The notes: generated by a model from the letters alone, not told the origin. 64,000 bases of DNA from an uncultured Verrucomicrobiae bacterium (GCA_963712025.1 CAVQGJ010000011.1:455929-519928); one strand, 5' to 3'; shown: positions 2,828 through 54,282, counted from the stretch's first letter. Made by a program: numbers and translations.

Positions 2828-4152
2828 TGCAACACCAGCTCGCGCGGCGTCTTCGCCCTCGTTCCCGCCGCAAACCCGAGCCGATCCAGCGCCTCGCCCA
2901 CCAGGAACAGCGATCCCGCGATGGCGATCGTTTCCGCGTTCTCGACGCGCGCCTGCGCGTACGCGGCGGAAAGGTCCCGCTCGACCGTGATCCGCGCCGC
3001 CGGGTTCGCCGCCTGGCACCACCGCGCCAACTGGTCGGGCTCGCTCGTCCGTTCGCTGTTGACGGGCACGCACAACACGCGCACCGCCAGCGGCGCGAGA
3101 ATCTGGCACATCTGGTCGTAATTCTTGTCCCGCAGCACGCCGAGGATCAACGTCAGCTTCCGTCCCGCGGCATGTTCGCGCAACGTCGCCGCCAATCGCT
3201 CCGCCGCCGCCGCGTTGTGCGCGCCGTCCAGCACCACCGTCGGGTCGTGGTGCACGATCTGGAACCGGCCCGGCCACGCCGTGCACGCCAGGCCTTCCGG
3301 CACCTGTCTCGCATTGACCGTCAATCCCGACGCTTCGAGCGCCGCAACTGCCGTCGCGCAATTGATCGTCTGATGCGCCCCGAGCAACGGAATCGTCAGC
3401 GGCCCGTAATCCCGGCGCGTGCCCGTCAACTCCACCCGCTGGCACCGCTCGTCTTCACTCAACCGCGTCGCGCCAATCTCCCGCCCCACCACCGTCAACG
3501 TGCTGCTCTGCGCCGCCGCGGCGCTCTGGATCACCGCGAGCGCTTCTTCCGTCGCCGCCGCTGTGACCACCGGCACGCCGGCCTTGATGATGCCGCATTT
3601 CTCGCCCGCAATCTGCGCCAGCGTCTCGCCGAGATACTGCGTGTGATCGAACGCGATGTTGGTGATCACCGAAACCAGGGGCACAATCACGTTCGTCGCG
3701 TCGAGCCGGCCGCCCAGCCCCGTCTCCCACACCACCACGTCCACGTTCTGCTCCGCGAAATACCGCAGCGCGATGGCGGTCACCGCCTCGAAAAACGTCG
3801 GTGCGCGAAACTCCGGGTTGGCGCCCACCGCTTCCAGCACCGGCTTGATCTCCTCGACCAGCCGCACCACGTCGCTCTCGGAAATCGGCTGGCCGTTGAT
3901 CTGGAATCGCTCGCAGAACGACACGAGATGCGGCGACGTGTACAGCCCCGTCTTGTAGCCCGCCGTGGACAGCACCGCGCTCAACATCGCCGCCACGCTC
4001 CCCTTCCCGTTCGTGCCAGCGATATGGATGAATCGCAACGACTTCTGCGGATCACCCATCAACCGCAACAAATACTGCATCGTCTCCAGGCCGAGTTTCT
4101 GGCCGAAAAGCCGGATGCCGTACAGGTATTCGATGGTCTCGGGATATGTCAA
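2824..4152 (-). CDS. folC: bifunctional folylpolyglutamate synthase / dihydrofolate synthase
   Basis: 442 aa; MTYPETIEYLYG..FIHIAGTNGKGSVAAML..YTSPHLVSFCERF. Mur-ligase family P-loop; classic accD-folC synteny. Confidence 0.9.
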   Translation of the reverse strand: MTYPETIEYLYGIRLFGQKLGLETMQYLLRLMGDPQKSLRFIHIAGTNGKGSVAAMLSAVLSTAGYKTGLYTSPHLVSFCERFQINGQPISESDVVRLVEEIKPVLEAVGANPEFRAPTFFEAVTAIALRYFAEQNVDVVVWETGLGGRLDATNVIVPLVSVITNIAFDHTQYLGETLAQIAGEKCGIIKAGVPVVTAAATEEALAVIQSAAAAQSSTLTVVGREIGATRLSEDERCQRVELTGTRRDYGPLTIPLLGAHQTINCATAVAALEASGLTVNARQVPEGLACTAWPGRFQIVHHDPTVVLDGAHNAAAAERLAATLREHAAGRKLTLILGVLRDKNYDQMCQILAPLAVRVLCVPVNSERTSEPDQLARWCQAANPAARITVERDLSAAYAQARVENAETIAIAGSLFLVGEALDRLGFAAGTRAKTPRELVLQ

Positions 4153-4208: not shown

Positions 4209-5087
4209 TTACGCCGCCGCCTTGAACTTCCGCCCGCCACGCCCGGAAAAATAACTCAGCAATTGCGCCAGCGTCTGTTTGAGTTGTTTCCGGTGGACGA
4301 TGAGATCGACCAGCCCGCGCTCGCGCAGAAATTCGCTGGTCTGGAATCCCTCGGGTAACTCCTGTTGCGTCGTCTCCTTGATCACGCGCGGGCCCGCGAA
4401 CCCGATCAACGCCTTCGGTTCGGCGATGATCACGTCCCCGAGCGAGGCGAAGCTGGCCATCACTCCCGCCGTGGTCGGGTGAGTCAGCACCGAGATGTAG
4501 GGCAACCCCGCTTTCGCGTGCAAGGCCAGCGCCCCGCTGGTCTTGGCCAGTTGCATCAGGCTGAGAATCCCCTCGTACATCCGCGCCCCGCCCGATGCCG
4601 ACACGATAATCACGGGAATCTTCAGTTCCGTCGCTTTCTCAATCGCCCGCGTGATCTTTTCGCCCACCACCGACCCCATGCTCGCGCCCAGAAAACTGAA
4701 ATCCATCACCGCCAGCGACACGTCGTGGCCTTCGAGTTTGGCCAACCCGATCACCACCGCGTCGTTCAGCCCGGTCTGCCGGTGATACGTCCGCAGCCGC
4801 TCCGAATACGCCGCCACGCCCGTGAACTTGAGGATGTCCACGCTCACCATGTCCGCGTCGCTCTCGCGGAACGTCCCCTCATCGGCCAGCAGCGCCACCC
4901 GTTCGACGGCGGTCATCGTGAAGTGGTAATCGCATTTCGCGCAGACCTTGGCGTTGGTGACGAGTTCCTTGCTGTAGATGATCTCGCCGCATTGCTTGCA
5001 CTTCACCCACAAACCGCTCGGGATCTCGTGCTTCTTGGTTTTCGTCTCGGAAATCTTCGGCTTTTCTTTTTCTTCGAATACCGCCAT
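4209..5087 (-). CDS. accD: acetyl-CoA carboxylase carboxyltransferase beta subunit
   Basis: 292 aa; N-terminal Zn ribbon (WVKCKQCGEIIYSKEL..CAKCDYHF) followed by the carboxyltransferase domain. Confidence 0.9.
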   Translation of the reverse strand: MAVFEEKEKPKISETKTKKHEIPSGLWVKCKQCGEIIYSKELVTNAKVCAKCDYHFTMTAVERVALLADEGTFRESDADMVSVDILKFTGVAAYSERLRTYHRQTGLNDAVVIGLAKLEGHDVSLAVMDFSFLGASMGSVVGEKITRAIEKATELKIPVIIVSASGGARMYEGILSLMQLAKTSGALALHAKAGLPYISVLTHPTTAGVMASFASLGDVIIAEPKALIGFAGPRVIKETTQQELPEGFQTSEFLRERGLVDLIVHRKQLKQTLAQLLSYFSGRGGRKFKAAA

Positions 5088-35579: not shown

Positions 35580-35741
35580 CCTCCGCTTGCCTCTTCGACA
35601 GATTGCGACGGGCGGCCCGAGTTCCGGGCCGCCCTGTTCGTTTCTTCGAGAAGCGCCCTTCCCTCTCGCCGCAACGAAATATCCTCGACATTCCCGCCGG
35701 GAAAATGGTTTGCTCGGTGTCGAGTGTTCAAGGAAGACATC

Positions 35742-37967
35742 ATGACCAATTTCCGGATTCTGGCGACCATTGTCCTCATCGGGTTTCTCAGTTCCCGCTG
35801 TGACGCCTTCACGAACTTCGTCGCGTGGACCCAACTTTACGGCTTCACCGGCGGCGCCGATGGTGGGCTCCCGGAATCCTGGCTCATTCAGGCCAGCGAC
35901 GGGAATTTCTACGGCACGGCGTCCCAGGGCGGCGCCAACAACTCCGGCACCGTGTTCCGTCTGACCATGGGCGTGACAAACATCGTCGGGACGATAACGA
36001 ACCTTGCGACGGTGACGACCTTGTACAGTTTCACGGGCGGCGATGACGGAGCCACCCCGGTCGCCGGGCTCTTCCAGGGCACCGACAGCAATTTCTACGG
36101 AATGACGACGCGCGGCGGCGTCAACGATACTGGCACGGTGTTTCAGATCACGCCTGACGGGACATTGACCACTTTGCATGGCTTCACCGGCGGCGCCGAC
36201 GGCGGCTATCCGCTGGGTGGGGTCATCCAGGGCAGTGACGGGAATTTCTACGGGACGACGTCCCAAGGCGGCGCGAACAACACCGGCACCGTATTCCAGA
36301 TCACCCCGGCCGGGACATTCACCACCTTGTATTCGTTTTCCGGCGGCACCGATGGCGCCATCCCGGCAGCCGGTCTGGTTCAAGGCACGGACAGCAATTT
36401 CTATGGAACAACTTCGATCGGCGGCTCGAACACCTACGGCACGGTGTTTTCGATTAGTTCCAACGGCGCGTTCACGTCGATCTATCAGTTTAACAAAGCC
36501 GACGGCAGATACCCCGCCGCGGCGCTCATCCAAAGCTCCTCGGACGGATATTTCTACGGGACGACTCCCCTCGGCGGGAACCGTGGCGAAGGGACGGCCT
36601 TCAAGGTCAGCTCGCAAGGGACGTTTACCACACTCTTCGACTTTGGCGGGTCGGACGGCGAACGGCCCGGCTCGTCTCTCCTGCAAGCCAGGGACGGTTT
36701 GTTTTACGGTACGACCTTCCTCGGGGGGTACCGCTACGGCACGCTGTTCCAGATGAACTCGAATGGCGTGTTCAACACCGGAAATGGCGGGGCCAACACC
36801 CTGGGCCGTTTCCTCGGTGACGTCCTGGGGGGCGTTCCGTACGCGGCCCTCGTCCAGGGCGCCGATAACTATTTTTATGGAACGACGGGCTACGGCGGGC
36901 CCGGTCTCCACGGCACGGTGTTCCGATTCACGGCGTTCCCGGGTGGAACCTATACCGGTCTCGCTACGCAAACCAACGACCTCACCGCGGCCAGTTCCGG
37001 CTTTCTCAATCTCAGCCTCCGGTTCACAGGATATTTCACGGCCAGGCTCACGATGGGGAATAAATCGTCGATGTTTAATGGAACGCTTAATCCTTCGGGC
37101 ACTACAACGAACTTCGTCACTCCCAGCGGCCAGAACCCGCTTCAGGTTGTATTCCAACTGAATAACGGCGGCGGCGGAACCAATGAAATCGACGGCACCG
37201 TCTCGAATGGAGTGTTCACGTCCGAGTTTCTGACGGATGCCGCGGGCGTGTTCGTCAACACGAATCCGTGTCCACAGTTCGGCAAATTCACCTTCATCAT
37301 CGCTCCGGCCAACACTAATGACACGAGCGTTCCCCAGGGATTCGGCTACGGAACGCTGACCGTCGCGAGGTTCGGCAAGGTGAACCTGCACGGCGTCCTC
37401 GGTGACGGCACTCCGTTCCGAGCCAACGGCCCCATCTCCAGCATCGGCACCTTCCCAATCTACGACCTCCTCTACAATGGAAAGCTCGGCTCCGTCCTCG
37501 GACGCATCAGCTTCCCCGCCACGAACGCGTTCGGCGCGACCCTGGATTGGTTCAAACCACCCGCCACGTCCAGCAACGGCTTCTACCCACGCGGGTTCAC
37601 GACCAGCCCGACCTTACAGGGCGCCGCTTACATCACGCCGACGAAGACGAACAGCCTGATCGTCGCCGGCCCCGCCCAGGTCACCCTCGCGGGCGGCAAC
37701 CTGTCGAGCAACATCGTCAAGGACGTGCTCATCGACTCCAATGGAGTCGTCACTGTCACCAATCCCGGCCCCGACAACCTGTCTTTCGGCATCGCGCTAT
37801 CCACTGGTCTGTTCAGCGGCGGCTTCACCAACCAGGACATCAACAAGATCGTGTTCTTCACCGGCTACCTGCTTCAGACCAACCAACTTGAGACCAGCCA
37901 AATTGGCGCCGGCCTCTTCTTCGGAACCAATCAAACCGGCTACGTCCTCATCCAACCCGCTCCCTGA
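35742..37967 (+). CDS. secreted GloVer (Gloeo_Verruco) tandem-repeat protein
   Basis: Signal peptide MTNFRILATIVLIGFLSS. At least 8 repeats of the form FTGGxDGxxPxxxLxQxxDGNFYGTTxxGGxNxxGTVFxI. Confidence 0.8.
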   Translation: MTNFRILATIVLIGFLSSRCDAFTNFVAWTQLYGFTGGADGGLPESWLIQASDGNFYGTASQGGANNSGTVFRLTMGVTNIVGTITNLATVTTLYSFTGGDDGATPVAGLFQGTDSNFYGMTTRGGVNDTGTVFQITPDGTLTTLHGFTGGADGGYPLGGVIQGSDGNFYGTTSQGGANNTGTVFQITPAGTFTTLYSFSGGTDGAIPAAGLVQGTDSNFYGTTSIGGSNTYGTVFSISSNGAFTSIYQFNKADGRYPAAALIQSSSDGYFYGTTPLGGNRGEGTAFKVSSQGTFTTLFDFGGSDGERPGSSLLQARDGLFYGTTFLGGYRYGTLFQMNSNGVFNTGNGGANTLGRFLGDVLGGVPYAALVQGADNYFYGTTGYGGPGLHGTVFRFTAFPGGTYTGLATQTNDLTAASSGFLNLSLRFTGYFTARLTMGNKSSMFNGTLNPSGTTTNFVTPSGQNPLQVVFQLNNGGGGTNEIDGTVSNGVFTSEFLTDAAGVFVNTNPCPQFGKFTFIIAPANTNDTSVPQGFGYGTLTVARFGKVNLHGVLGDGTPFRANGPISSIGTFPIYDLLYNGKLGSVLGRISFPATNAFGATLDWFKPPATSSNGFYPRGFTTSPTLQGAAYITPTKTNSLIVAGPAQVTLAGGNLSSNIVKDVLIDSNGVVTVTNPGPDNLSFGIALSTGLFSGGFTNQDINKIVFFTGYLLQTNQLETSQIGAGLFFGTNQTGYVLIQPAP

Positions 37968-38016
37968 GCGAACCGGCCTTTTCGGATTTCCGACGATAGC
38001 CGCTCGCGCCCCGCCC

Positions 38017-38748
38017 CTACCCTTCCAACTGCTTCAAATCAATCCGTCCGTCGTACAGCGCTTTGCCGATGACCACGCCCACGAGGTTGGGAAGGTGTTC
38101 CGCGAGGTGTCGCAGACGGAGAACATCGTCGAGACCCCCAATCCCGCCGCTGGCGATCACGTTGCAGGTGACGGCACCGCAGACCGAGGTAATCGCGCTG
38201 TAATTCGGCCCCGTCAACATCCCGTCCGTTGATACGTCCGTGAAAATGATGTTCTGGACGCCGAGCCGGGTCACCTGCTGGGCAAATTCATTCGCCGTGA
38301 GCTTCGTTTTCTCCGTCCAGCCTTTCACCGCAACAAAACCGTCGCGCGCGTCGATGCCCACGACGATCCGGGTGTGAAAATCCTGGACCAGCGCACTGAC
38401 GAAATCCGTCGAGCCGCACGCCGAGGTGCCCAGCACCACCCGGGTGACGCCCATCTGCAACGCCTCCTCGACTTGCGAGCGGCGACGCAGACCCCCGCCG
38501 AGTTGAATCGGAATCTGCACGGCCCGGAGGATCGCCCGGACTCCGTCCCAATTGCGTGGTTCGCCTTCGAACGCGCCGTCCAGATCGACGACGTGCAGGT
38601 ACCGCGCCCCGTCGTCCTCCCAGCGCTTCGCCACTGCGCCGGGATCCTCGCTGTACACCGTGGCCGCCTCGGCGCGTCCCTGTTGCAAACGCACCACCTT
38701 TCCACCCTTCAGGTCGATGGCGGGAAAAATCAGAAAAGGTCTTTTCAT
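38017..38748 (-). CDS. hisA: HisA, ProFAR isomerase
   Basis: 243 aa. FPAIDLKGGKVVRLQQG..GGGLR..ASGGIG. Confidence 0.85.
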   Translation of the reverse strand: MKRPFLIFPAIDLKGGKVVRLQQGRAEAATVYSEDPGAVAKRWEDDGARYLHVVDLDGAFEGEPRNWDGVRAILRAVQIPIQLGGGLRRRSQVEEALQMGVTRVVLGTSACGSTDFVSALVQDFHTRIVVGIDARDGFVAVKGWTEKTKLTANEFAQQVTRLGVQNIIFTDVSTDGMLTGPNYSAITSVCGAVTCNVIASGGIGGLDDVLRLRHLAEHLPNLVGVVIGKALYDGRIDLKQLEG

Positions 38749-38756
38749 AAGGGATA

Positions 38757-38784
38757 CAGAAGTCAGGAGACAGTAGACAGAATG
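38757..38784. repeat. inverted-repeat arm (3' side of the four-helix-bundle ORF)
   Basis: CAGAAGTCAGGAGACAGTAGACAGAATG. 23 of 28 positions are complementary to 39129-39156, and the terminal 10 are perfect. Confidence 0.7.
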
Positions 38785-39131
38785 GCCGAGGCGTAAGCGT
38801 CTAACAATCGGCTCACCTCATCAAGTTCGGTTTGCAGTTCGTCCGTTTTCCCGTAGCCCAAGTCGGCCGCAAGGATCAAATAGTATCGGCATTCCTCCAA
38901 CGACCCTTGGGCGGTGTTCATAAAACGCGCCTTGTCAGCGCGCCCCTTTTTCTTGAAACCTTCGGCGATGTTGGCTGGGACGGATACCGCTGCACGCCGC
39001 ATCTGTCGAGCCAGACCATATGTTTCGGCGTTGGGAAAATTACCGCTGAATCGATAGAGCGCCAGCACCAATTCATGTGCCTTTTGCCAGACAATCAAAT
39101 CCCGAAAGGACTTGGACGGCGGGCGGTTCAT
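38763..39131 (-). CDS. four-helix-bundle protein (23S rRNA intervening-sequence protein family)
   Basis: 122 aa. MNRPPSKSFRDLIVWQKAHELVLALYRFSGNFPNAETYGLARQMRRAAVSVPANIAEGFKK..SLEECRYYLILAADLGY. The ATG overlaps the hisH stop (ATGA). Confidence 0.85.
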   Translation of the reverse strand: MNRPPSKSFRDLIVWQKAHELVLALYRFSGNFPNAETYGLARQMRRAAVSVPANIAEGFKKKGRADKARFMNTAQGSLEECRYYLILAADLGYGKTDELQTELDEVSRLLDAYASAILSTVS

Positions 39132-39775
39132 TCTGTCTCCTGTCTTCTGTCTCCTGTCTTCTTGCCTAAGCCGACGAAATTTTCCAACATCTTCAATCCA
39201 ACGCCCTGCGATTTCTCGGGGTGAAACTGGGTCGCGTACACGTTGCGCGTCCAGAGCATCGAGCAGAACTCGATCCCGTACTCCGTCGTGCCGCAAACGA
39301 CCGATGCTTCTTTCGGCTTGCAGTAGTAGCTGTGCACGAAATACACGCGGCTGCCGTCAGCCACGCCGTCGAGCAACGGACAGCCCGGCTTTCGGATTTG
39401 GAGTTGGTTCCAGCCCATGTGCGGCACCTTCAGGCCGTTGGCCCCGACTCGGAGTCGGGGCACCGTGCCGGGGAACACCGCCAATCCGCGCACGCCCGCC
39501 GTCTCCTCGCTCGACTCGAACAACGCTTGAAACCCGAGGCAAATCCCGAGGAACGGTCGCTTCGTCCCGATAAAATCGCGGATCGCGCCGGTCAGCCCCG
39601 CCTTCTCCAGGTTCGCCATGCAATCCCCGAACGCGCCGACGCCCGGCAGCACCACGGCGTCCGCCGCCAGCACCGACGGGGCGTCGCTGACGATGTGCAC
39701 GTCGGCCCCGACCCGCGCCAGCGCTTTCTCCACGCTCCGCAGGTTGCCCATTCCGTAATCAACAAGCGCAATCAT
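39128..39775 (-). CDS. hisH: HisH, imidazole glycerol phosphate synthase glutamine amidotransferase subunit
   Basis: 215 aa from ATG 39775. MIALVDYGMGNLRSV..LPGVGAFG..GICLGFQALF..HSYY..FHPEKS. Confidence 0.85.
   Translation of the reverse strand: MIALVDYGMGNLRSVEKALARVGADVHIVSDAPSVLAADAVVLPGVGAFGDCMANLEKAGLTGAIRDFIGTKRPFLGICLGFQALFESSEETAGVRGLAVFPGTVPRLRVGANGLKVPHMGWNQLQIRKPGCPLLDGVADGSRVYFVHSYYCKPKEASVVCGTTEYGIEFCSMLWTRNVYATQFHPEKSQGVGLKMLENFVGLGKKTGDRRQETE
39129..39156. repeat. inverted-repeat arm (5' side; also encodes the hisH C-terminal tail and the SD and ATG of the inserted ORF)
   Basis: CATTCTGTCTCCTGTCTTCTGTCTCCTG. Contains a tandem GACAGGAGACAGAA unit on the minus strand. Confidence 0.7.
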
Positions 39776-39822
39776 CCCGTCCGACACAATAGCGAAAACT
39801 CGCTCAGAGGGGAAGCTCCGCC

Positions 39823-41200
39823 TCACGGCACCGGACGCCGCGGCAGCAGCCGGCTGATCGCCCGGCTCGGCGTTTTCACCAGCAGTTCGCGCAAGAACGC
39901 ATCGGTCGTCATCGCGCGGGCCTCCGAGACACGGCTGCGTAGCGCCACGGCGACCGTCATGCCGACCGCCATCGCCGCGTACAACAGGCTGTACTGGTTC
40001 CATTGCCATCGCGACCACGAACCGCCCCAACCCGCCAGGGCATCGAGCAGGATCCCCCAGAAAATCGGGAAGATGCCCGATATCAAGCTCGTCACCACGG
40101 TGTACAACGCAAAAAAATGACTCCGCCCCATCTGCCGGCACCGACGCCATCACCAGCCGCGTGTTCGCGAGGTTGAACGCCCCCATGCCGATGGCCGATG
40201 TGGTTTGAACCAGGATGATTGCCAGCAGTCCGAACGGCAATACGTGCGCCGCCACCGAACACCAGAGGCTCAGGTGCACCACCAAGGTCGCCGTCGCCAG
40301 TCCCAGCAGCGGACGGCTCCCCACCCGGTCCACCAGACGGCCGAATCCCCACAGGCACGCCGCGCTCACGAAGCTCCACAACACCATCATTCCCAGGATC
40401 AGGGAATCGGTTGCCGCAAACGAGTCGCGCAACAACGGAATCCAGATGACGCCCGCGCCCGCTATGGAAAACAACAGCACCGCGTTGTAGACCATCAACC
40501 TGAAGAACGGCGGATGAAACAGCATCTCTTTGTAGGGCACGTTCTCCGGGCTGGCCGCCGTCGGCGGCACCGGCACGTCCGGAATGCGCCGCAGGAACCA
40601 CAGGCTCAGAAGAATCGCCACAAAACCCCCAGCAAACAGCAGCCCGTACGCGTACTTCGCTTCTGGCGCCTTCAGGTAGATCGTCGAGATGATCATCGTC
40701 CCCAACGTCGCCAGCGCCGCCGACGTTTGATCGCCCGACACGTACCGACCGCGCACTTCCTCGGGAATCCAGTGGGTCATCCACGGCAAATATCCGCACA
40801 GCGAGATGCCGCGCGACGCGTTGAACGCGAACAACAGAAACAGCAACAGCGAGATCCGCGTCATCGGGTCGATTTTCCCCGGCAGCATCGCCACACCCGC
40901 GATCCCGAGTATGAACGCGCTCCGTAGCGTCCACCCCCGCACCACGAACGCCCGATACCCCATCTTCTCCACGAACTGCGCGGCGGGAATCTGGAGGATG
41001 TTCATCAGCGACGGCAGCGCCACGACGATCCCCAACACCGTTGCCGACGCCCCCAGCTTCTTGAAATACAGAAGCATCGGCGTGCTCGTCATCATCGTGA
41101 ATGACGCCGTGTTGAACACTTGGAACAAATACGCATTCCACACTCCCTCGGGCATCCGGGCGGGCGCGTGCAAGGTCCGTTGGGTCTCGACTTCTGTCAC
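39823..41200 (-). CDS. MFS transporter (one frame break)
   Basis: About 12 TM helices. The N-terminal ~355 aa lie in ORF 39128..41200, and the C-terminus (MGRSHFFALYTVVTSLISGIFPIFWGILLDAL..) lies in ORF 39823..40131. The break is at about 40128-40140. Confidence 0.65.
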
Positions 41201-53373: not shown

Positions 53374-54282
53374 ATGAAGAGAACGCTGAGAATCACCTCT
53401 CTTGGAGTCTTCCTGCTCCTTGGTTTCTGCTTTGCAGTCCCCCTCGCACATGCTGATACTATCTACGCATCCGCGTATGGTTTCGACGAGATATTGAAAA
53501 TCGACTCGAATGGGTCCGTGTCCACCTTCGCCTCTGTTGGTTCTGGACTGAACAACCCGCTTGGCCTTGCCTTCGACAATAACGGCAATCTCTACGTAGC
53601 TAATTCTGGCGATAACACGATTGAGGAATTCAATTCGAGCGGAACCGGGTCGATCTTCGCCACATCGGGATTGAGCCTTCCCATTGGTCTTGCCTTCGAC
53701 GCCAGCGGCAATCTCTTCGTCGCCAACGCTGCCAACAGTACGATTGAGGAATTTAATCCGAACGGAACCGGCACGGTGTTCGCCACCGCAACCTCGGGCT
53801 TGAACGGCCCCGTTGCGCTCGCGTTTGACGGCAGCGGCAACCTCTTCGTTGCAAACCAGGGTAACAGCAGCATCGAGGAATTCGGCTCAAGCGGAACCGG
53901 GTCGGTCTTCGCCACATCCGCCTCGGGCGTAAGCAATCCATATGGCCTTGCTTTCTACGGCGGCGATCTCTATGTGGCGAACTACAGCGGCAATACGATA
54001 GAGAGATTTAATTCGAACGGACAAGGATCGATCTTCACGTCGACGAACCTGCTAGCGGCTCCTATTGGTCTCGCCTTCGACAGCAGCGGCAATCTCTTCG
54101 TCGCGAACCATTTCACCGCTTCAATTCTGGAATTCAATTCCAGCGGTGTCGGCTCCGTGTTCGCTTCGGGCTTAGGTAACCCTACTGATCTCGCCATCGA
54201 CGTTCCCGAGCCATCGTCGTTTCTGCTGGCCGTGCTCGGAGTCGTATCCCTCGCCGCGCTCCTCAAACGCCACCGCGCATAA
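53374..54282 (+). CDS. NHL-repeat beta-propeller protein with PEP-CTERM sorting signal
   Basis: Signal peptide. Six repeats of the form PxGLAFDxSGNLFVANxxNxTIEEFNxxGTGSVFA. C-terminal VPEPSSFLLAVLGVVSLAALLKRHRA. Confidence 0.85.
   Translation: MKRTLRITSLGVFLLLGFCFAVPLAHADTIYASAYGFDEILKIDSNGSVSTFASVGSGLNNPLGLAFDNNGNLYVANSGDNTIEEFNSSGTGSIFATSGLSLPIGLAFDASGNLFVANAANSTIEEFNPNGTGTVFATATSGLNGPVALAFDGSGNLFVANQGNSSIEEFGSSGTGSVFATSASGVSNPYGLAFYGGDLYVANYSGNTIERFNSNGQGSIFTSTNLLAAPIGLAFDSSGNLFVANHFTASILEFNSSGVGSVFASGLGNPTDLAIDVPEPSSFLLAVLGVVSLAALLKRHRA

Follow-up and report, generated by a model that had tools for sequence, protein, structure and literature searches.

What is a gene of the S23p/IVP family of four-helix-bundle proteins doing between hisH and hisA, and what is the repeat structure that encloses it? 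We addressed this question in a stretch of 64,000 nucleotides from an uncultured Verrucomicrobiae bacterium, hereafter called the window. The locus comprises three co-oriented genes on the minus strand: hisH, coding for the glutamine amidotransferase subunit (39128..39775; Pfam GATase, E 5.5e-24, closest homologs named HisH), hisA (38017..38748; Pfam His_biosynth, E 6e-76) and, between these two, an ORF of 122 aa (38763..39131; PF05635 23S_rRNA_IVP, E 4e-36). The neighbors of this ORF and its repeats are, besides hisH and hisA, an MFS transporter gene, clpX and the gene of a repeat protein. The ORF is present in a single copy, no second one being found in the 64-kb window.

The ORF and the two arms that bracket it form a cassette of 404 nt (38755..39158, minus strand), in which each arm is composed of four tandem heptamers. 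The 5' arm (39131..39158, minus strand) reads GACAGGA GACAGAA GACAGGA GACAGAA and is reported by TRF at 39131-39162 with a period of 14 and a 100% match. The 3' arm (38755..38784, minus strand) reads CA followed by TTCTGTC TACTGTC TCCTGAC TTCTGTA (heptamers at 38782-38755) and pairs with the 5' arm in the predicted folds: the arms are paired in both the MFE and the centroid structures of the RNA, with a z-score of -3.95. As an inverted repeat, 38756-38784 and 39129-39157 are complementary at 25 of 29 positions. A previous sequence-only reading of this DNA had described a four-helix-bundle ORF bracketed by inverted repeats, which the PF05635 match and the position of the arms confirm. It had located the arms correctly, but the complementarity that it gave as 23/28 is in fact 24/28 (25/29 with one extra base), and the perfect 10 bp (CATTCTGTCT / AGACAGAATG), which it had assigned to the outer end of the stem, are found at the ORF-proximal, i.e., loop-proximal, end. 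The heptamers had escaped that reading.

The arms are tightly interwoven with the translation signals of the ORF, as that reading had also noted. The 5' heptamers lead without a gap into the start codon (ATG, 39131-39129), so that the final A of the array is the A of the ATG, and the Shine-Dalgarno sequence (SD) is the GGAG of the third unit (GACAGGA), located five bases ahead of the AUG and inside the 5' arm. At the other end, the 3' arm codes for the last six residues of the protein, ILSTVS, and for its TGA stop (38765-38763). The 5' array is, in addition, the coding frame for the last ~10 codons of hisH (KTGDRRQETE) and for the hisH stop: the C-terminus of HisH reads ..KKTGDRRQETE and the hisH TGA overlaps the ATG of the ORF (ATGA). 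The hisA ATG lies 14 nt past the cassette stop, with no SD-like purine run visible in this 14-nt spacer. No promoter-like site was found in the scanned stretch around the cassette, and the terminator search did not call the arms, its three weak matches being close to the 1.8 expected from shuffles. An internal promoter and an intrinsic terminator were rejected on these grounds.

A palindrome may arise by chance near an ordinary small gene, and the first evidence bearing on this possibility comes from the window itself. The motif GACAGRAGACAG, searched with at most one mismatch, has 5 matches in the 64-kb window, all of them within the two arms, vs a mean of 0.52 in shuffled controls, none of which (0/100) reaches 5.

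The encoded protein scores 123.9 bits with PF05635 (cut-off 33.8) and 115.2 bits with the NCBIfam model TIGR02436, "four helix bundle protein" (cut-off 24, E 1.6e-33). Its nearest solved structure is that of Xanthomonas Xcc0516 (PDB 2gsc, E 1.1e-20, residues 10-107), a protein reported as a pentamer (PMC4990558), and a second structure match is 2rld (E 4e-4). The conserved R-x3-S-x3-N-x2-E segment is present in the window protein as RAAVSVPANIAE. Comparison of the window ORF with its relatives gives dN/dS values of 0.07-0.13, showing that the protein evolves under purifying selection. The family is huge, with 20,845 clusters at 50% identity (E up to 1e-3), and no homolog of the window protein was found in the phage collection.

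Avd, the accessory protein of diversity-generating retroelements (DGRs), belongs to a homologous four-helix-bundle fold family, and the ORF could on this account be taken for the Avd gene of a DGR or for a remnant of one. The similarity is weak: the window ORF scores 24 bits (E 6e-5) with PF22296 (bAvd) and 29.2 bits with NF033474, far under the respective curated cut-offs (40 and 80 bits). The ORF translations within ~3 kb include no reverse transcriptase, no TR/VR repeat pair was seen next to the cassette, and its neighbors are the transporter, hisH, hisA, clpX and repeat protein genes named above, which makes a DGR origin highly improbable.

To see whether the arms accompany the gene elsewhere, we collected homologs in one scan of species-representative genomes and one scan of metagenomes, which gave 160 loci with homologs 62-81% identical (Verrucomicrobia, Nitrospirota, Acidobacteria, Cyanobacteria, Ignavibacteria, Chloroflexi, Desulfobacterota, Firmicutes and others). 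An arm was defined as at least three in-phase units on a side and was scored for 143 full-length genes, from more than 10 phyla, that had flanking sequence. Of these homologs, 89 carry both arms vs none of 741 control ORFs from the same loci, and at least one arm is found in 124/143 vs 9/741; 19 of the 143 have neither. The proposal of the sequence-only reading that genes of this family travel as small cassettes bounded by inverted repeats is thus borne out as regards architecture. The flanks reveal this build at nearly every locus, and the units of both arms follow the consensus H-CAG-R-A-K. Upstream, they take forms such as GAGTCAG, AATTCAG, GAGCCAG or GAGACAG and close in ..CAGAATG; the 3' end of the gene reads ..ATTCTGACTCCTGACTCCTGA in other loci. 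The register is precise: in 53 of 75 loci, the first CTG precedes the end of the stop codon by exactly 18 nt, and in 27 of 75 the last CAG is directly followed by AATG.

The two arms of a locus are also matched to each other. The variable base ahead of CAG covaries between them (Spearman 0.59-0.60, p ~2e-8), and the arms of one locus are more complementary than arms swapped in from other loci (p = 0.008). The same arm-gene-arm build occurs on a finished isolate replicon, pNPUN02 of Nostoc punctiforme, and is therefore not a metagenome artefact. Across the loci L001-L080 (~0.4 Mb), heptamer arms enclose either a member of this family or nothing, and no other cargo was found between them.

That 23S rRNA may contain intervening sequences (IVSs) with S23p ORFs has been known since the early 1990s, and "four helix bundle" genes outside rRNA are known as well. 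To our knowledge, the origin and function of these IVSs have so far remained unexplained. The window cassette bears a close resemblance to them.

The IVS in helix 45 of Coxiella burnetii 23S rRNA is 428 nt long and contains an S23p ORF (Warrier et al. 2016, PMC4990558). Its two ends pair as a 28-bp stem that RNase III cuts in the middle, and two to three GACAGAT units plus one GACAGAA lie directly before its ATG, the number of heptamers differing among strains; the ORF is reported as decaying and probably untranslated (PMC4990558). Leptospira carries another 23S rRNA IVS with an S23p ORF, cited in the same paper. We identified a further case on plasmid AZO_p2 of Azospirillum lipoferum 4B, where an LSU rRNA gene (Rfam RF02541, 2693 bits) surrounds a 39%-identical homolog that is flanked by GACGGAT GACAGAG GACGGAG GACAGAA and the reverse complement, closing a long stem. 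The Coxiella and Azospirillum elements thus have the same ORF family, PF05635, and the same type of heptamer as the GACAGGA/GACAGAA of the window, and in Coxiella, as in the window, the heptamers run directly into the ATG. The analogy with rRNA IVSs drawn by the earlier reading proves closer than it had claimed, since heptamer arms are shared.

There are also differences. In the window, the element lies at an operon junction of an mRNA instead of in 23S rRNA (helix 25 or 45), and its 5' arm also encodes the C-terminus and stop of hisH; the window ORF has a good SD and is under purifying selection, whereas that of Coxiella is reported as decaying. Being located between hisH and hisA, with no Rfam match within 37500-40500, the window element is a variant of the IVS, distinct from the classical type in rRNA. 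Of the close homologs checked for rRNA context, none lies in rRNA, and no 23S motif was informative; the weak 23S motif matches of L054 and L142 were rejected as not rRNA. Judged from sequence, the link between the window cassette and the rRNA IVS is homology of the whole element, and the cassette is of the same type as the elements in 23S rRNA helix 45 of Coxiella and Azospirillum. The locus is therefore probably best explained as an IVS-type element, an S23p/IVP gene within inverted H-CAG-R-A-K arrays, housed in an mRNA operon.

Comparison with relatives shows how this element sits at the hisH/hisA junction. Two close relatives (L081 and L082) have the synteny of the window, MFS-hisH-hisA-738-aa gene, with hisH and hisA 93.8% and 90.9% identical to those of the window at the nucleotide level, but lack the ORF; in this empty site, hisH overlaps hisA by ATGA. 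This supports the earlier claim of an insertion between the two genes, and the cassette has taken over the ATGA stop/start overlap that joins hisH to hisA in the empty site. A third junction (L085) is empty and keeps one heptamer-like unit (AAGAAGACAGG). Filled hisH-hisA junctions were recovered at eight loci in total, those with the window synteny being L083, L084, L166 and L016. In two further relatives (L167 and L168), internally deleted remnants are fused into hisH; they are identified as decayed cassettes by the two 5' heptamers, the cassette ATG and the few codons that they retain. The site is thus polymorphic among relatives, being filled, occupied by a deleted remnant, or empty.

The C-terminal tail of HisH follows the cassette. 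HisH proteins ending in ..KKTGDRRQETE or ..GVRSQESE have a cassette downstream, while most others stop soon after ..ENFVxLxKK, and KKTGDRRQETE was found only in HisH homologs with the ORF or its deleted remnant on the contig. That the cassette supplies the tail, as had been suggested from the window, is therefore supported; the search for the same tail without the ORF returned only L167 and L168, both decayed cassettes, and hence no counter-example.

At the eight filled loci, third-codon positions of the ORF are 36-58% identical, apart from one closely related pair at 83%, and the arms are mostly 80-100% identical, the exception being the 5' arm of L087. Conservation of the arms where synonymous sites are saturated indicates that they are selected at the nucleotide level. 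Together with the motif count in the window and the arms of the homologs, it refutes a chance palindrome beside an ordinary small gene, a reading that has nothing in its favor beyond the view of a single locus and whose probability we regard as close to nil.

In a tree of HisH, filled loci are dispersed, with the window nested among empty relatives. The junction pattern fits either an old insertion followed by repeated loss or the transfer of filled alleles between relatives. The closest empty junction (L081) is remodelled instead of cleanly excised, so that neither a target site nor a duplication can be defined there, and a clean insertion/excision junction was rejected. Base composition speaks to the age of the copies: the GC content of the ORF tracks that of the host with a slope of 0.89, staying ~6 points lower in hosts of every GC, which indicates that most copies are old residents and not new arrivals. 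The dip in the window, where the cassette has ~53-54% GC vs 61% in its flanks, was rejected as a sign of recent arrival because such a deficit is a family trait.

For the IVS-type element, we propose the following mode of action. The cassette would be transcribed from the promoter of the host operon, and the ORF would be translated by coupling to hisH, via the SD within the last heptamers; with no SD after the cassette, hisA probably depends on reinitiation. Where the RNA is untranslated, the arms would pair as a stem of ~29 bp that masks the SD and AUG. A point against the stem is that translating ribosomes would melt it, the last codons of hisH being the 5' arm. By analogy with the Coxiella stem, the ~29-bp stem is a likely substrate of RNase III: excision by this enzyme is experimentally established for Coxiella and other rRNA IVSs, and by extrapolation from Coxiella the stem may process or regulate the his transcript, as the sequence-only reading had proposed. 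A cleavable stem could allow the element to be tolerated at little cost in essential transcripts, be they rRNAs or operons. The element would behave as a selfish cassette of long standing, which lineages gain, exchange and lose.

Some observations weigh against this reading: 19 of the 143 homologs lack both arms, most copies are old residents, and no transposase, recombinase or target-site duplication was found. In addition, the sequence of the heptamers is conserved beyond what pairing demands, which suggests a sequence-specific partner, none being needed by a plain RNase III stem. Moreover, the mismatched arm pairs across homologs comprise 75 G-U and 69 A-C, without any wobble bias on the sense strand, so that the symmetry of the arms fits a role at the DNA level as well as it fits an RNA stem. 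With both observations, a DNA-level or a protein-binding role of the arms is equally possible.

The arms could then act as DNA, being terminal inverted repeats or recombination sites of a mobile cassette that is moved by its own protein or by a factor in trans, with gene-less hairpins as MITE-like derivatives and the RNA stem as a by-product. Hairpins of this kind exist: about 17 gene-less hairpins with the same arms were found in the 0.8 Mb examined, and some keep CAGAATG...ATTCTG around a short loop, resembling internal deletions of the cassette. At L018, the operon order is cas4-hairpin-IVP-cas1-hairpin-cas2, and two hairpins of this locus are near-identical, with the loop GAAGATTTTAT in common. 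A mobile cassette would also agree with the conserved heptamers and the missing G-U bias, with the patchy filled state over the HisH tree, with close homologs (63-74% aa identical) across numerous phyla as well as on conjugative plasmids of cyanobacteria, and with the comparison of the window and L166, whose cassettes are 86.6% identical at the nucleotide level vs 78% for the flanks. However, no transposase, recombinase or integrase is encoded in or beside the cassette, and no target-site duplication was seen. The remodelled L081 junction and the cassette GC, ameliorated to the host, also weigh against DNA-acting arms, as does the synonymous saturation between most same-site copies, which implies long vertical residence. 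Finally, the polarity of the arms is fixed with respect to transcription and points to a role in RNA or translation. We consider DNA-acting arms a tentative possibility, which is compatible with an IVS-type element.

The positions of the cassettes in operons are in favor of the IVS-type element, which usually lies co-oriented between closely spaced genes: of 111 loci, 90 have an upstream neighbor that shares the strand of the cassette, 13 of these with an ATGA overlap, and 68 such a downstream neighbor, many starting 12-22 nt past the cassette. In another reading, the element is a domesticated module of benefit to the host, its protein binding heptamer RNA or DNA and tuning the expression or stability of the operon, and is kept because translation of hisA depends on it. 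Some junctions recur across lineages, namely hisH/hisA (the eight loci above), sites upstream of aspartokinase-like and response-regulator genes, and cas operons; 18 genes of this family have been described in cas loci, where repeats are unmentioned (Zhang and Ye 2013, PMC3936711). This recurrence would be expected of a useful module, and so would the strong purifying selection on protein and arms and a hisA without an SD of its own after the cassette. Against it, the closest relatives (L081, L082 and L085) do without the cassette, the remnants represent loss without replacement, the host contexts are functionally unrelated, and the literature found gives the family no function. Domestication therefore appears rather unlikely.

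Several known systems resemble the cassette in part. REP/BIME sequences with their RAYT transposases, and MITEs, are likewise short inverted-repeat hairpins between genes within operons, and they share with the cassette the existence of gene-carrying and gene-less versions with the same arms (e.g., L018). In contrast, the cassette gene encodes a 122-aa helical bundle without a known nuclease or transposase fold, and the arms are tandem heptamers without visible target-site duplications. Integron cassettes are similar in being small promoterless units of a single ORF, dependent on an upstream promoter and bounded by imperfect inverted repeats. They differ in that they have a single attC at the 3' end, where the arms described here are split around the ORF, and the only cargo of heptamer arms at the loci examined was this one protein family. 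The ORF translations near the cassette, whose neighbors are housekeeping genes, give no sign of an integrase, attI or cassette array.

What was known before is the rRNA IVS with its S23p ORF and heptamers; what appears to be new is the occurrence of the element at operon junctions across phyla, the selection on its arms and its gene-less derivatives. In the literature searched, nothing beyond the Coxiella paper was found on heptamer strings or connecting PF05635 with heptamers outside rRNA, nor any account of a heptamer-armed element at operon junctions across phyla, of arm selection or of gene-less derivatives. With the IVS-type element, what had been a peculiarity of rRNA becomes a general element, open to testing in tractable hosts, Nostoc punctiforme among them. 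It accounts for odd C-terminal tails of host proteins, of which HisH ..KKTGDRRQETE is an example, and for the "four helix bundle protein" genes that interrupt operons, including cas operons, and the heptamer arms provide a recognizable signature for annotating this gene family.

A broader and more speculative proposal, which we regard as less likely than not, is that S23p/IVP genes and heptamer arms make up one widespread class of tiny cassettes that colonizes both rRNA helices and operon junctions in numerous phyla. The protein, a homolog of the reverse transcriptase-binding Avd, might recognize H-CAG-R-A-K and act as a mobility or RNA-processing factor, and the gene-less hairpins could be non-autonomous derivatives. 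If true, it would settle what the rRNA intervening sequences are, a question of long standing.

The arms also recall tandem heptamer arrays described in other bacteria, namely TAACTGA arrays in cyanobacteria and Beggiatoaceae (PMC4679880) and the heptamer repeats of Nostoc (bioRxiv 10.1101/2022.06.06.494920). These, too, are intergenic 7-nt arrays near start codons and are patchily distributed across phyla, and TAACTGA read on the opposite strand (TCAGTTA) has a CAG core, as in the cassette arms. Yet their repeats are direct, no inverted partner or enclosed gene is described for them, and neither publication mentions the S23p/four-helix-bundle family. We take a kinship between the two kinds of array as a lead and not as a result. 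Distant subfamilies of the cassette use other heptamers, of the CTGCC type in three plasmid copies, and one Pseudanabaena copy has direct arrays of AAAGCTA / AAAGCCA.

The adaptation operon of a Nitrospirota metagenome-assembled genome (L018) combines the cassette with inverted heptamer arms that enclose no four-helix-bundle ORF, in the order cas4, gene-less heptamer hairpin, four-helix-bundle cassette, cas1, hairpin, cas2. The hairpin and cassette features of this CRISPR operon lie at 1507-1581, 2878-2973, 3001-3369, and 4432-4519, and the loop GAAGATTTTAT is common to two hairpins. A hairpin resembling those of L018 is found immediately upstream of cas2 in a second related locus, L003. Distant members of the four-helix-bundle family, carried by the plasmids pPg_01 of Pseudanabaena galeata (L176) and pANA02 of Anabaena sp. 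90 (L171), are located between cas6 and cas4. The arrays that flank the Pseudanabaena copy are direct, not inverted: AAAGCTA is repeated about 12 times on the upstream side, and AAAGCCA about 10 times on the downstream side.

In other hosts, the cassette is placed directly upstream of what appears, as judged from the first codons only, to be the same gene in different lineages (L009/L039, L014/L052, and L013/L031/L034). The genes 3' of the cassette start with MALIVQKYG or MSLIVQKYG (aspartokinase-like), MSKLLIVDD (response-regulator-like), or MKIPLK. Two loci related to each other (L054, 278-436; L142, 355-513) carry matches to the Rfam family TwoAYGGAY RNA (RF01731), scoring 48-51 bits, some 2 kb before the cassette on its upstream side. 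Long nested or tandem heptamer hairpins of up to 11 units stand on either side of the cassette in L130, a single short metagenome contig, at 55-285 and 701-904.

Across all related loci, the GC content of the cassette ORF lies about 6 points below that of its flanks and tracks the GC content of the host with a regression slope of 0.89 (r = 0.86). The dip was rejected as a mark of recent transfer, since the offset is constant over hosts of 33% to 68% GC.

Upstream of hisH in the window, the coding sequence of an MFS transporter gene on the minus strand is divided over two reading frames at 40055-40134: the ortholog from L081, a close relative, matches frame -1 with its residues 4-385 and frame -2 with its residues 359-461. 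The division is a frameshift, so that the gene is a pseudogene or the assembly contains an error, and it gives rise to an artificial 690-aa ORF reading into hisH in the window translation. On the hisA side, the adjoining 747-aa ORF (35724-37967), whose orthologs in L081 and the cassette-filled locus L084 have no Pfam match, contains a long tandem repeat with a period of 153 nt (36066-36409). Another long tandem repeat of the window, at 53561-53786, has a period of 123 nt.
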